Positions 12,628 to 18,219 of a stretch of DNA of 64,000 nt are shown one piece after another. Source of the DNA: a virus. The stretch lies in IMG/VR virus record IMGVR_UViG_3300032116_000013, positions 96,001-160,000 of that record. One strand, written 5' to 3'. The notes below the pieces were generated by a model. It was not told the DNA's origin, did no database searches, and saw only the letters and a program-made list of their open reading frames with translations. Position 1 is the stretch's first letter. Each line of letters starts with the position of its first letter. Position numbers and translations under genes: made by a program.

Positions 12628-12651
12628 GGGGGACTTCGGTCCCCCTTTTTT
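12628..12651 (+). terminator. Rho-independent terminator with cUUCGg loop
   Basis: GGGGGAC-TTCG-GTCCCCC-TTTTTT. Confidence 0.92.
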
Positions 12652-15401
12652 CATCCATATGCTAAAGTTGGATCTGACGCAGAAGGTTTTTCTATTTGAT
12701 TAATTTGATTTTCTCTTAACTCTATAACTTGTCTAGTTAAAAAGTTAACTCTTTTATCAATATTTTGACCAACCATCAAAGCAGCCAATGCTGTTTTTTG
12801 AGCATTATCAACATTTAATTGAGAAACGCTGTCTTCACCTAGTGCAATAGATTCTTCTTGTTTAGACATTACTGTAGATTCTCTAGGTAAAGTTGACATA
12901 ACTCCTAAAGCCTTTTCAATATATGATCTATTAAAATCTGCTGTTTGACCGAATGCATCAGCAAACATAGAAGGTTGCACTTTTACATCATTTGCTCTTG
13001 CTGCTAGTTCATCTACTGTTATGTTTCCATCCCCATCTAAATCTAATTTATCATTTAATTCATAAGCCTTAGTTCCTGAGGATATTAGAACATTGGAACC
13101 TTTTTGAGCAGCCGCAGGCTGTAAAACATATGCGTAGATAGTTCCTAAATCTGATCCCACTGGAAGACCCCATTTATCAAAATACTTTTCAACCCATTTC
13201 ATTTGCTCTGCTGCAGATAAACTGCCTAAAACTCCAGTTGAACCGCCTTTATCTTTTGGTTTTCCTATTGCTCCAGGAACACCTAAATCTGCTGCAGTAA
13301 TTGGCATAAACTGAATCAATCCAGTAGCACCAGTGACATTATTTTCTGCTTTAGGATCAATTGCGCTTTCTTTGTACATAACCTTTAATAAATCAGCAGG
13401 ATCAATCATGAATTTCTCAGAAACTCGCATAACTTCACTAGCAAAAGCAGAATCTTCACCTAGAACCTTGTTCACCCTTTCTTTATCGGTTGTTCTAGCA
13501 CTAATAGTGGCTATTTGCTCTTTTGTTAGATTATAATTTGTTGCAAATGGGTCAAATTCTTTCGACAATTCTTCTTGGGTTGGTTCTGGTGGTAATACAA
13601 TCCCACTCATCCATCCGAATATTTTTTCAGATACAGCCATGGATTCATCGTTTAAAAATAAACTTGCTATAGTACCGCCGCCAAGTCCAGCAAAAAATCC
13701 AGCAGGACCACCAAACACACCACCTACGGCTGCAGCCAACCCACTAACTCCTATTGTTTGAACGAAAGTGTTTATTCCACTTATCATTGTTTCTTTGTAT
13801 TGAGTAGGGCTAATTACACCATTTTTGTATTGTTCGATTGCAGTGCTCATGCTGATTATGGCAGGAACTAAAAGCAATCCGCCAACTGCAGCCGTTTTAG
13901 TATATCCCATAAATCGATTTCTTTTTACAAATAGTTCTAATTGTATTAATGCCTTAGTAACTTTCAAAGGCACAACTCTTTGAGTGAATTTGTAAGTAGA
14001 ACCAGTTGTTGTTGCTTTAGGCGCAGCGCCAATAGGGGTTTGCCCTTTGGGCGACTTTACAAACTTTCCGCTTATCGGATCTTTGAATCTTTGGGAAATA
14101 GGATCAAAAACTGGAGTTATCCACATTTTTCTTTTAGCGTCCCAAACTCTACCGCCGATTATAGTACCACTTAAAGTAGCATTATTAGCAATACCAGTCA
14201 TTGATGCACCAGGCGCTGCAGCGGCTGGTACTGCCTCTGGGCGAACTGCAGTTGCTGCTAAAGGTGGAAGTCTTACTTGAGATGCAAGAGCACCACCACC
14301 AGGAATAGAACCCAATACTTTAGGTAACAATTTTCTGAGATATCTATTTCTCCCAGCAAAAACGGCAAATTTTCCAGCACTAGAAATAGCAGTGTATGCT
14401 ACCAATCCTGCCAATACTTCATCTATTTCTTTGAGTGGAGTTTCAATCAGATAATTTACTGACTTTTTAAATTCTATTTGCTGCTGTCTTAAATAGTATT
14501 CCTGCGTGCCAACGATTTCTTTATTTTTATATTGATCTTTGTCTTCTAATTCAAATCCTACCCCGCCCTCCATTCTTCTACCAATTCTTCCAGCCAACGA
14601 TTTTGCAGGTTCTATTAATAGACCTACGGTAAACGCTTTTCCTAGAATAGGAATTGCAGACTTTATAACTTTTCTAGTTACTTCAGCAGAAATCGCGCCA
14701 GCGGCAGTTGCTGCTGCACCACCAGCAGCTAACAGTTTGTTTCCGCCCATCACTCCTGCGCCTACGGCAGTCAAACCTGCTCCAGCTAACGAAACTGCAA
14801 CTATGGATTTAACCATTTTTTTGAGTTTTTCGTTTTCTTTTTCTCTTCTTTCTTTGGCTTCTTTTATTCTTGGGTCAACATAATATGGATCTGCAGGAGC
14901 CTTCATAGATTTGAGCATTTCAATTTCTTTGTTTATTGCTTCAATTCTACCTTTGACTGATCTTGATGATAGAGGTGCTCTAGGGGCTGTTATTTTTCCG
15001 CTTTGAGTTAATACATTGAACTTTCTTTGCCCTTTGAAATATCCAAGATCGCTCATAATTGTATTAATCAGGGCTGTATTTTTTTCTGAAACAGCAGTTA
15101 AAATTGTTACTTGATTAGACAATGTTTTAATAGAGCCAGTGACGTAACTTTTGAATTTCTCATTTTGAGCCTCAATAGCCATGTCACTTTTCATCTGTCT
15201 TTCTTGATCAACTTTATTTGCATATCTCATCAAGGCTATTTGCTTTAGCGTCTGAGATCGAGTTAAAGTTGCAGCCATGCCCAAAACAGAAAATCTTGCC
15301 ATGACATTCTGTTTGACTGATTCTCTCATCAATCTGGTGATTGATGCACCGCGCATAGACTGCATCATCATCAAATTAACTGCTACGTCTCTTAAAGCCA
15401 T
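12651..15401 (-). CDS. Tape measure / gp29-equivalent with C-terminal lytic transglycosylase (SLT) domain
   Basis: Long Ala/Gly-rich helical protein directly after gp51; LLKVMYKESAIDPKA...GATGLIQFMP SLT motif. Confidence 0.75.
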   Translation of the reverse strand: MALRDVAVNLMMMQSMRGASITRLMRESVKQNVMARFSVLGMAATLTRSQTLKQIALMRYANKVDQERQMKSDMAIEAQNEKFKSYVTGSIKTLSNQVTILTAVSEKNTALINTIMSDLGYFKGQRKFNVLTQSGKITAPRAPLSSRSVKGRIEAINKEIEMLKSMKAPADPYYVDPRIKEAKERREKENEKLKKMVKSIVAVSLAGAGLTAVGAGVMGGNKLLAAGGAAATAAGAISAEVTRKVIKSAIPILGKAFTVGLLIEPAKSLAGRIGRRMEGGVGFELEDKDQYKNKEIVGTQEYYLRQQQIEFKKSVNYLIETPLKEIDEVLAGLVAYTAISSAGKFAVFAGRNRYLRKLLPKVLGSIPGGGALASQVRLPPLAATAVRPEAVPAAAAPGASMTGIANNATLSGTIIGGRVWDAKRKMWITPVFDPISQRFKDPISGKFVKSPKGQTPIGAAPKATTTGSTYKFTQRVVPLKVTKALIQLELFVKRNRFMGYTKTAAVGGLLLVPAIISMSTAIEQYKNGVISPTQYKETMISGINTFVQTIGVSGLAAAVGGVFGGPAGFFAGLGGGTIASLFLNDESMAVSEKIFGWMSGIVLPPEPTQEELSKEFDPFATNYNLTKEQIATISARTTDKERVNKVLGEDSAFASEVMRVSEKFMIDPADLLKVMYKESAIDPKAENNVTGATGLIQFMPITAADLGVPGAIGKPKDKGGSTGVLGSLSAAEQMKWVEKYFDKWGLPVGSDLGTIYAYVLQPAAAQKGSNVLISSGTKAYELNDKLDLDGDGNITVDELAARANDVKVQPSMFADAFGQTADFNRSYIEKALGVMSTLPRESTVMSKQEESIALGEDSVSQLNVDNAQKTALAALMVGQNIDKRVNFLTRQVIELRENQINQIEKPSASDPTLAYG

Positions 15402-15599
15402 TTATCTTTTTCTTTTAGTTTTGGTTTTAGAAATTAGGGCATTCATTTTAGATTCTTGTTCCATTCGCTTCTGTTTAACTTTCTCAGACTCTTCTTTAAC
15501 CCAACTGTTCACCATTCCAATGTACGTATCTCGTTCCCATGGAATCATATTTTCTAATTCAGTCAATGTGTATTTGTACTGATGAACTAGAGTAAACAT
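15402..15599 (-). CDS. 51: Baseplate hub assembly protein gp51; frame stays open upstream to the slippery site at 15650
   Basis: KYTLTELENMIPWERDTYI motif. Confidence 0.85.
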   Translation of the reverse strand: MFTLVHQYKYTLTELENMIPWERDTYIGMVNSWVKEESEKVKQKRMEQESKMNALISKTKTKRKR

Positions 15600-15601
15600 G
15601 T

Positions 15602-15665
15602 TTCCGTAATAATTCTTTAAAGAACCATCACGGAAGGTTAGGTAAAAAAATCGTTGAGTCCCTCC
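15602..15665 (-). promoter_or_regulatory. Putative programmed -1 ribosomal frameshift signal (gp26 to gp51)
   Basis: GGAGGG (15665-15660), 9 nt, T_TTT_TTT (15650-15644), 8 nt, then a 15-bp hairpin (15635-15602). Confidence 0.75.
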
Positions 15666-16393
15666 AGATGCAATTGATGTTTAAATCCGCATTTCTGACA
15701 ATCATGTTCTTTGTCATATGATATAGTTGGAAGGCTCTCAAAAAATTCTGTGATCTTTAAAAATTGTTCTTGAGTTAAACTTTCAAAGAACGTATAGAAT
15801 TCTTCAACAGGCGTTTCGTTTTTATAATACACTTCTTTAGCATCAAAAATATATTCAGTGCAATCATAAATGAGGTCAAAAACTTCCTTATTGCCGTCTG
15901 ATAAAATCATGCTTTCGATAGATTTATAATTGGATAGATTTGGGAATTTTAGTTGAATTCCTATGTCTTTAGTTAGATAAATTCTGGTTGGTAGATTTTC
16001 AATGGCTGGTTTGATTTCCAGAAGATTTACGCTGACTGGCATCATGTGCATACAGTAGTCATCTTCTTCAACGCCTTCCTCGTTAGTCTTTTTTCCAACT
16101 ACGTTTCTGCAAACAAAGTATGTTTCTACTTTTTCGCCTATAGATCTTGCTCTTATGTTTAAAAACAAATACTCAATATCGAAGATTGGAATCTTATCAA
16201 TATCCATCTCGTCGATAATACAATTATTGACTACTTGTTTGATTGTTTTTAAAATATCTTCTTCTTTACCAGACTGTAGTGCCATCAAAAGAAGTTTTTC
16301 TTCTTTGACGAGAAATGGTCTGAATTTAATAGGAGTTTCGTGGGAAACAAGTTTCAATTCAAATATAGGTAAATCAATTTTAGGTAATGGCAT
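15638..16393 (-). CDS. 26: Baseplate hub assembly protein gp26
   Basis: MPLPKIDLP.FEL, FRPFLVKEEKLLLMA, FDIEYLFLNIRARSIGE and C-terminal CQKC...LEGLNDFF. Confidence 0.92.
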   Translation of the reverse strand: MPLPKIDLPIFELKLVSHETPIKFRPFLVKEEKLLLMALQSGKEEDILKTIKQVVNNCIIDEMDIDKIPIFDIEYLFLNIRARSIGEKVETYFVCRNVVGKKTNEEGVEEDDYCMHMMPVSVNLLEIKPAIENLPTRIYLTKDIGIQLKFPNLSNYKSIESMILSDGNKEVFDLIYDCTEYIFDAKEVYYKNETPVEEFYTFFESLTQEQFLKITEFFESLPTISYDKEHDCQKCGFKHQLHLEGLNDFFT

Positions 16394-16407: not shown

Positions 16408-17196
16408 TTATCCCAATCCAGCAGTGTTATTCCAAATCATATCTATTATCGACTCAGTAGATTCATCAACTGCAGATCTAGAAGGAGCAGTAGTATATCT
16501 ACCATCATTAATTTTAAAATGTTCATAAGCCCAAACAACTGTAACTCTATGGAATCCATCATCACTCCAGTTTGATTGCATAGAAGTAACATTTACTGGA
16601 TATGCATTTTCTAGTTTTACCGAATAGTAAACATTTCGTTTTTCATTTGTATTGGCTAAAGAATTAACTCTGTTGACAAAAGTTTGTCCTAAGTCTACTG
16701 CTTTGAATACTTTAGAAGATTCAAACAGTTTAGCATTAATTTTGTCAACACTATTTAAAAATGCAGATAGTCCGCCGAAAATTTTATTTCTTCCGTATGG
16801 AATATCTGAAAATTGTAGCAATTCTATATCAGCAACAGTCTCGTCAAAGTACCAGTTTCTTGTAGTTGGAAGTCCTGCAGAACCTCCACCAAAACACGTT
16901 TCTACCCAAGAATTAAAAAAGTCATAGACTGGGATATTAGTATTATGGACAAATGTTGTGGTTATTTCATTATCTTCTCTGGAATAACCAACTCTGATTT
17001 TATTTCTGCCTGGTATTTTATAGTCTACCGTCTGTACTGTTTTTCCAGGAAACTCTACAGATTCGCATAGAGTCATAAACTCTCTCATATCAAAAGTTCC
17101 TTGCTCGATAAATGGAACGACTGGTATTCTCACTAAAAATTGCGAAGACTTCAAGAAGTCCTGCGACATAAACTTTTGCAGTGAAGGTGTTTCCAT
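16408..17196 (-). CDS. Tail-tube-fold protein, probable gp54 tail tube initiator
   Basis: CESVEFPGK, FFNSW, LENAYPVNVTSMQSNW and VTVVWAYEHF. Confidence 0.7.
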   Translation of the reverse strand: METPSLQKFMSQDFLKSSQFLVRIPVVPFIEQGTFDMREFMTLCESVEFPGKTVQTVDYKIPGRNKIRVGYSREDNEITTTFVHNTNIPVYDFFNSWVETCFGGGSAGLPTTRNWYFDETVADIELLQFSDIPYGRNKIFGGLSAFLNSVDKINAKLFESSKVFKAVDLGQTFVNRVNSLANTNEKRNVYYSVKLENAYPVNVTSMQSNWSDDGFHRVTVVWAYEHFKINDGRYTTAPSRSAVDESTESIIDMIWNNTAGLG

Positions 17197-17235: not shown

Positions 17236-17781
17236 TTAATTATAGATAAACTTTTCTGTTGGAAGGAATATGGCTGACTCCCATTGGTCTGGTTCAACGT
17301 AGATAATTGAAGACCTGATGTGCTGGAATAAGTATCTTTTTGTACACTGTTCTATCATATTGTATCTTCTGGACTTCGACAAAAGGTCATAGGATAGATT
17401 AAACTTGGTTGTATCGTCGTATTTGGTATTGTTTATGAAGTCATGGAGCCTGTCCAGCAAAACCAATCTGGTGTATGGATCCAAATAATGGAGATTCAGA
17501 CCTAGAAATCCATTGTCATAGGTGTTGACTGGTATGACTAGCGGGAATTTATCCCAAACTGGTAGAGTTTCTTTGTATTTTGGGTCATAGTGGTAGAAAT
17601 ACATTCTACCGATAAACATCTTAGACGTAACTCTCTTGGCGTCATTTAGGACGTTCGATCTATTGGATGGCATTTTAAGACTATAGAGTTTCTCTCCTAG
17701 CCAATTTCTAGCGGCTTGGGTTCTTGGGCGAATCCCAGCGGCTGTCATTTCTTTACTCAATTTATCAAATAGAGATGGCAT
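17236..17781 (-). CDS. 2: DNA end protector protein gp2
   Basis: GRMYFYHYDPKYKETLPVWDKFPLVI, GFLGLNLHYL and KRYLFQHI. Confidence 0.9.
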   Translation of the reverse strand: MPSLFDKLSKEMTAAGIRPRTQAARNWLGEKLYSLKMPSNRSNVLNDAKRVTSKMFIGRMYFYHYDPKYKETLPVWDKFPLVIPVNTYDNGFLGLNLHYLDPYTRLVLLDRLHDFINNTKYDDTTKFNLSYDLLSKSRRYNMIEQCTKRYLFQHIRSSIIYVEPDQWESAIFLPTEKFIYN

Positions 17782-18215
17782 TAGATACCTAATTCCTTTT
17801 CAGTTACAAGTTTAAATGTCCAATTTCGGTCTTTACAGTACTCGTCAGCGGCTTTCCATTTAGCCTCATTTATACCATAAGTTGCGACTTCTTTGATATA
17901 TTGTCTGGTTACTCGTTTTTTAGTTTGAGGTGCAACTGTTTGTTTGGAGGGTTTAATCTCTATAATTATGGTTTCGACCACTCCAGCCCTGTTTTTAACC
18001 TTCACTAGAAAATCTGGGAAATAACGATGCCAACGATTGTCAACTGGGGATAAATATGGTATGATTATTTCTTCACTAGACCAATGTAACACGTTTTGGT
18101 CACAGTCCAGATGCACCATGACTCGACGCTCCCACAAACTTCTATACCATATGTTCGTAGGGTCGCCTAAATATTTATTAGGGTTTTTAGGACTAAATTT
18201 TCCGCTGTACGCCAT
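17781..18215 (-). CDS. 4: Head completion nuclease gp4
   Basis: YSGKFSPKNPNKYLGDPTNIWYRSLWE, YFPDF, IEIKP and NEAKWKAA. Confidence 0.95.
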   Translation of the reverse strand: MAYSGKFSPKNPNKYLGDPTNIWYRSLWERRVMVHLDCDQNVLHWSSEEIIIPYLSPVDNRWHRYFPDFLVKVKNRAGVVETIIIEIKPSKQTVAPQTKKRVTRQYIKEVATYGINEAKWKAADEYCKDRNWTFKLVTEKELGI

Positions 18216-18219
18216 CAAC

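Follow-up and report, generated by a model that had tools for sequence, protein, structure and literature searches.

Tail assembly chaperone genes reportedly have a conserved −1 frameshift (Levin et al. 1993; Xu, Hendrix and Duda 2004), which in phage lambda yields gpG and gpGT. In phage T4, gp26 and gp51 are hub assembly chaperones (Leiman et al. 2010, PMC3004832, Table 2), and gp51 is required, yet it is not found in the particle (PMC3004832). Vladimirov, Gautam and Davidson (Virology 2022;566:9-15, doi 10.1016/j.virol.2021.11.003) are reported to have identified gp26 and gp51 as the T4-like tail assembly chaperones, and a paper that cites theirs presents poly-T −1 signals in these genes as already known. 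PRFect summarizes the 2022 paper as stating that frameshifting is replaced in some T4-like phages by two genes, one short and one a long fusion. When the literature was searched for gp26 and gp51 in connection with frameshifting or tail assembly chaperones, all matches concerned unrelated phages in which the same gene numbers occur by coincidence. A preliminary description of the locus presented here regarded a gp26/gp51 frameshift as undescribed, which is probably wrong in view of the papers citing the 2022 work; the general idea of such a frameshift in T4-like phages appears to be in print already. The value of the present analysis lies in confirmation, in numbers, and in the correction of annotation.

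The locus belongs to an uncultured, T4-like phage with a genome of ∼197 kb. The window that we analyzed, a stretch of 64,000 nucleotides, spans positions 96001-160000 of an IMG/VR virus record of 197,424 bases, judged 100% complete by CheckV, and all coordinates below are those of the window unless another record is named. When the locus was compared with phage records by megablast, a 56-bp match was the only result, and no close cultured relative was found.

A gp26-like gene overlapped by a gp51-like frame

The gp26-like gene (15638..16393, minus strand) encodes in the zero frame a protein of 251 aa, the short form (TAC-N), and ends with the stop codon TAA at 15640-15638. The protein matches PF12322 (T4_baseplate, E 6.9e-53) over residues 11-250, covering profile positions 4-218 of 219, and it matches the baseplate hub family phrog_150 with an E value of 1.6e-59; by these profile matches it is a full-length PF12322 protein of the gp26 family. 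PF12322 is present in a single copy in the 197-kb genome. The genes nearby are gp4, gp2, a tail-tube paralogue, gp48, and gp32. The tail-tube paralogue (262 aa, 16408-17196, minus strand; phrog_45, E 2e-21) lies directly upstream of gp26, and the gp4-like head completion protein (17781-18218, minus strand) contains PF08722, a TnsA-like endonuclease N-terminal domain (E 3.7e-23). The block consisting of gp4, gp2, the tube paralogue, gp26/51, and a large protein has the same synteny in phiM12 (gp19.2), and phiAS5 shares the gene order of the window from gp2 onwards.

On the minus strand, the 3′ end of the gp26-like ORF reads CTG GAG GGA CTC AAC GAT TTT TTT ACC TAA. It includes the heptamer T_TTT_TTT (15644..15650, minus strand) in X_XXY_YYZ phase, which is the proposed −1 shift site. 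An internal Shine-Dalgarno (SD)-like GGAGGG (15660..15665, minus strand) is found 9 nt upstream of the heptamer, and an 8-nt spacer separates the heptamer from a stem-loop (15602..15635, minus strand), a likely 3′ stimulator, with 15 contiguous pairs, three of them G:U, and a TTAA loop. The −1 frame is open from 15680, and from the heptamer it supplies the gp51-like tail of the long form, 80 codons and a stop (15402..15644, minus strand; TAA at 15404-15402). This extension matches phrog_634, the "baseplate hub assembly catalyst" family (gp51), with an E value of 4.4e-19, and it too is present once in the genome. When the minus strand was rechecked, each coordinate that the preliminary description had given for the cassette was correct, and the SD, heptamer, spacer, and hairpin were all found where it had placed them.

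This arrangement suggests how two proteins may be produced from one gene. We consider it likely that the gene yields, besides the 251-aa gp26, a gp26-51 fusion of 330 aa through a −1 ribosomal shift; that the shift occurs, and that it is made by the ribosome, we infer from the sequence of the locus and of its relatives. Most ribosomes would terminate at the zero-frame TAA and release the short form. In a minority, tRNA-Phe bound to UUU in the P and A sites of U_UUU_UUU would slip back by one base, probably aided by anti-SD pairing with the upstream GGAGGG and by the 15-bp hairpin downstream. The slipped ribosomes would then read 80 codons in the −1 frame to give the long form, in which the gp51-like tail is attached to gp26 residues 1-250. 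These two products would be the counterparts of the T4 baseplate-hub/tail assembly chaperones gp26 and gp51, and their probable target would be the large product of the gene directly downstream.

The heptamer and its flanking elements in related phages

Judged in the window alone, the combination of motifs is not beyond chance. The pattern GGAGG-N6-12-TTTTTTY occurs once, against 0.31 times in shuffles, and 22 of 100 shuffles contain it at least once; the case must therefore rest on comparison with relatives. As a separate observation, T7 runs are strongly under-represented in the window, which has 22 of them where dinucleotide shuffles give 61 ± 11; selection to avoid slippery homopolymers in the rest of the genome would fit this deficit.

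The survey drew on 78 loci from IMG/VR, with the gp26 protein as the query, and on 80 metagenome loci, with the extension as the query. Sinorhizobium phage phiM12 and cyanophage Syn1 were added as reference phages. The 161 junctions are made up of 81 from IMG/VR and the reference phages and 80 from metagenomes. An in-phase NNT TTT TTN is present in 161/161 related junctions and precedes the gp26 stop by 0-8 codons, in most cases by one; in every surveyed junction that is long enough to show it, the −1 frame remains open for 57-81 codons from the heptamer. The preliminary description had named the comparison of homologous junctions among the tests that could refute a frameshift; all 161 of these homologues retain both the in-phase slippery heptamer and the −1 phase.

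A conserved Phe-Phe forces part of the T run, and we counted this against the frameshift. In 81/81 loci the codon before Phe-Phe, which may be AGT, GAT, AAT, TCT, GCT, GGT, or CGT, has T as its last base, and TTT is used for the first Phe, whereas in the same genes the background is 56% for T-ending codons and 72% for TTT as the Phe codon. The probability of retaining the heptamer from codon usage alone is ∼1e-18 (41 representatives sharing <60% identity). On these codon statistics the heptamer site is under synonymous constraint, and the lineages that keep it share just 32-45% protein identity. The frame change is pinned to the T run itself by some loci in which the −1 frame becomes open only two codons before the site and the zero-frame stop comes directly after it.

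The upstream element shows a similar bias. A conserved Glu codon, five codons before the first Phe, is GAG in 51/64 loci, as compared with 24% GAG elsewhere in the same genes, and in 22/29 cluster representatives (p 6e-9). The choice of GAG creates GGAGG or GAGGG 8-10 nt before the heptamer, and this synonymous enrichment argues for an internal SD that acts on the ribosome. The SD-like motif is missing in about one-fifth of the loci.

The hairpin of the window is strong, with a folding energy of −18 kcal/mol and a z score of −5.5 against dinucleotide shuffles (1/200 shuffles equal it), and it is restricted to some lineages. Within the subclade of the window it is retained at −15 to −18 kcal/mol in 6/8 members and lost in two (L086 and L088). 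The check for compensatory changes in the stem, which the preliminary description had proposed, found one CG↔UA compensatory pair, in three subclade sequences. The family as a whole does not conserve the hairpin. Covariation support within the subclade is modest, as 21/500 shuffles show at least as many double changes as the real alignment. In the family-wide comparison, the 55 nt after the heptamer have a mean z of −0.90 versus −0.23 in control segments (Mann-Whitney p 0.005), and downstream structure is modestly enriched, not universal. A single hairpin common to the whole family was considered and rejected; the stem registers differ by clade, and many clades have no stem.

A T run of this kind could also act at the level of transcription, with RNA polymerase adding one U on the run and thereby fusing the frames in some of the mRNAs. 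The run is homopolymeric, 7 T's in the window and 6-9 in relatives, and one inserted U would lead to the same fusion. Efficient slippage by bacterial RNA polymerase, however, needs about 8-9 or more A/T, and the T run is just six in 50/81 loci. Moreover, the selection for GGAGG at 8-10 nt and the enriched downstream structure act on the ribosome and have no role in transcriptional slippage. In its summary of the 2022 paper, PMC10885494 gives the other mechanism as two separate genes, not slippage. We therefore regard transcriptional slippage as unlikely and retain the ribosomal −1 shift as the explanation for the fused frames.

The extension, T4 gp51, and the gene downstream

The −1 ORF contains no ATG, GTG, or TTG before ATG 15599 (15597..15599, minus strand), its sole start codon, which lies 15 codons into the conserved extension. 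The match to phrog_634 begins at extension residue 5, 11 residues upstream of this ATG, and the extension aligns without gaps to 22 relatives starting at residue 1. The conserved residues L9, N11, Y13, and F17 precede a core motif around Y-S-L-T-E-L-E-N-M-I-P-W-E-R. The preliminary description had noted a gp51-like motif upstream of the only start codon, and the relatives bear this out, as a conserved L-x-N-Y-Y precedes a first start codon that is itself variable. The position of ATG 15599 aligns with a conserved Asn in relatives, and across the surveyed loci the position of the first ATG in the −1 ORF ranges between −19 and +55 codons relative to the heptamer; in several loci it is found at +32 or +55, within the conserved core.

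These start codons bear directly on the possibility of two independent genes, in which translation of a 65-aa gp51 would start at ATG 15599 and Phe-Phe would be the sole reason for the T run. The ATG is indeed present, and GenBank annotates small gp51 ORFs in Syn1, phiM12, and phiAS5. However, L9, N11, and Y13 are conserved upstream of the ATG, and initiation at the ATG at +32 or +55 in several relatives would remove half of the conserved domain. No SD precedes ATG 15599, which is located 2 nt past the end of the 3′ arm of the hairpin. Nor does Phe-Phe by itself account for the T run, since T4 retains Phe-Phe as TTC TTT without a heptamer and the third base is T in 81/81 loci. Finally, T4 gp51 is a full-length fusion-type protein. 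Taken with the above, independent initiation of gp51 is very improbable. A chance, functionless association of SD-like motif, T run, and hairpin, as an expectation of 0.31 composite motifs and the presence of 22 T7 runs in the window might allow, has a negligible likelihood when set against a site conserved at synonymous positions in 161/161 junctions from lineages with 32-45% protein identity.

In public annotation, gp51 is a stand-alone ORF of 40-53 aa that starts at the first available ATG, and conserved residues are cut off. The annotated small ORFs are found at 2519-2680 of the phiM12 locus (L001), 2561-2692 of the Syn1 locus (L002), and 2262-2384 of the phiAS5 locus (L170), and none of these three public records contains a ribosomal-slippage join. 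If the fusion is produced as proposed, each small ORF labeled "baseplate hub assembly catalyst" in the public records of cyanophages and of Sinorhizobium and Aeromonas phages is a piece of a longer, frameshifted protein; the starts given for these ORFs would be arbitrary, and the records would therefore need such a join.

Comparison with T4 supports the ribosomal −1 shift from the side of the proteins. T4 gp51 (249 aa) contains a PF12322 domain at residues 1-201 (E 3.9e-52) and then a tail that matches phrog_634 (residues 147-246, E 1.2e-23). The predicted 330-residue fusion and the fusions of seven relatives align to T4 gp51 without gaps across the junction, and the gp51-specific C-terminal tail …Y-S-L-x-E-[IL]-x-x-M-I-P-x-E-R… follows the PF12322 domain in the long form. 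T4 gp26 (208 aa) stops exactly at the junction, with the ending …GLKEFFELL. The short form in the window thus ends where T4 gp26 does, and T4 gp51 is matched collinearly by the predicted long form. T4 itself has separate genes 26 and 51, which are transcribed divergently and lack a slippery site, whereas the window genome has a single copy of each part. With a single PF12322 domain and a single tail, only recoding could supply the long form, if it is needed as in T4.

The presence of the slippery site follows the same division. T4 keeps Phe-Phe, written in the non-slippery form GAG TTC TTT, and 5/5 separate-gene Straboviridae (T4 and four others) are without the heptamer. The two-gene phages KPV15 (GAA TTC TTT), fHyAci03 (GAA TTT GTT), AS4 (none), and PSTCR6 (GAA TTT TTA) lack it, whereas Aeromonas phage phiAS5, in which 26 and 51 are adjacent, has GAT TTT TTC.

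The earlier proposal that gp26 and a gp26-51 fusion form the tail assembly chaperone pair is supported both by this collinearity with T4 gp51 and by the predicted fold of the N-terminus. An AlphaFold2 model of the 251-aa protein has a mean pLDDT of 86. An exhaustive structural alignment with VIA-align matched residues 1-87 of the model to 2ob9, the tail assembly chaperone of HK97 (Z 7.5, rmsd 3.8 Å over 83 residues), and to the prophage proteins 3fgx (Z 7.8) and YqbN 3klu (Z 7.5); these chaperone matches are under the caution line of the tool at Z 8, and the next unrelated fold is at Z 4.4. The resemblance of the modeled gp26 N-terminal domain to the HK97 tail assembly chaperone fold is suggestive. 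A Foldseek search of the 251-aa model against the PDB gave no match, a PDB sequence search with the gp26 profile gave none either, and hhalign of this profile against lambda gpG showed no relationship (probability 0.2).

Directly after the stop of the extension, ATG 15401 begins an ORF of 916 aa (12651..15401, minus strand) with an SLT lytic transglycosylase domain (PF01464, E 7.5e-8, residues 661-744). The preliminary description had placed the gp51 stop against the ATG of the tape measure gene: the adjacency is exact, but the identity as a tape measure comes without similarity to T4 gp29. By BLASTP, neither T4 gp29 nor the tape-measure-like protein of phiM12 showed significant similarity to the 916-aa ORF, an NCBIfam search gave sub-threshold transglycosylase matches only, and a look-up in the ESM Atlas returned nothing usable. 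The position and synteny of the gene, its size, the SLT domain, and Gly/Ala-rich hydrophobic segments make it a probable tape measure, the analogue of gp29. Just past the SLT domain, residues 784-800 (13002-13052, minus strand) contain an EF-hand-like calcium-binding loop, D-L-D-G-D-G-N-I-T-V-D-E-L, with a PF13202 match (E 0.0036) below the family cut-off. In phiM12, an additional ORF of 139 aa (phrog_27150; L001 2699-3118) lies between the gp51 tail and the tape-measure-like gene, and the window has no counterpart to it.

Significance and comparison with known systems

The proposed shift would explain the source of the essential long chaperone, the product of gene 51 in T4, in those T4-like phages that have just one gp26-type gene. 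Phages with one gene and a slip site and phages with two genes and no slip site together constitute a clean natural experiment on the need of phages for a fixed ratio of short to long chaperone, and the all-U heptamer with its synonymously selected SD offers a simple cassette for reporters. We think it doubtful that the 2022 paper dealt mainly with the two-gene solution of T4 and never analyzed the U_UUU_UUY shift, the internal SD, and the lineage-specific hairpins. Should this be the case, the present results would point to family-wide recoding in hundreds of cyanophage and other T4-like genomes, in all of which gp51 would be annotated as a truncated stand-alone ORF.

A close parallel is lambda gpG/gpGT. 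As in lambda, the predicted short and long forms have a common N-terminus, the proposed shift is situated a few codons ahead of the stop of the short form, and the gene is immediately upstream of a very large gene, here a probable tape measure. In contrast to lambda gpG, gp26 is ∼110 residues longer, with an extra Cys-rich domain, and there is no detectable sequence similarity between the two. The heptamer is U_UUU_UUY in the gp26 family and G_GGA_AAG in lambda, and the partner of the chaperone in T4 is, unlike in lambda, a baseplate-hub/tape-measure protein. A U-rich heptamer, G_GUU_UUC, is also used in T7 gene 10A/10B (PMC12846349). As in the dnaX/IS-type cassettes of E. coli, the window contains a phased heptamer with an open, conserved −1 ORF, an SD-like element, and a downstream stem-loop, at similar spacing; it differs from them in that the heptamer is all-U and the 3′ stem is lineage-specific. 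The stimulators of such cassettes are an SD-like element ∼8-14 nt ahead of the heptamer and a stable structure 5-9 nt past it, and the window has both. The outcome would differ as well, as the dnaX shift truncates its protein, whereas the gp26 shift would lengthen its product by 80 residues.
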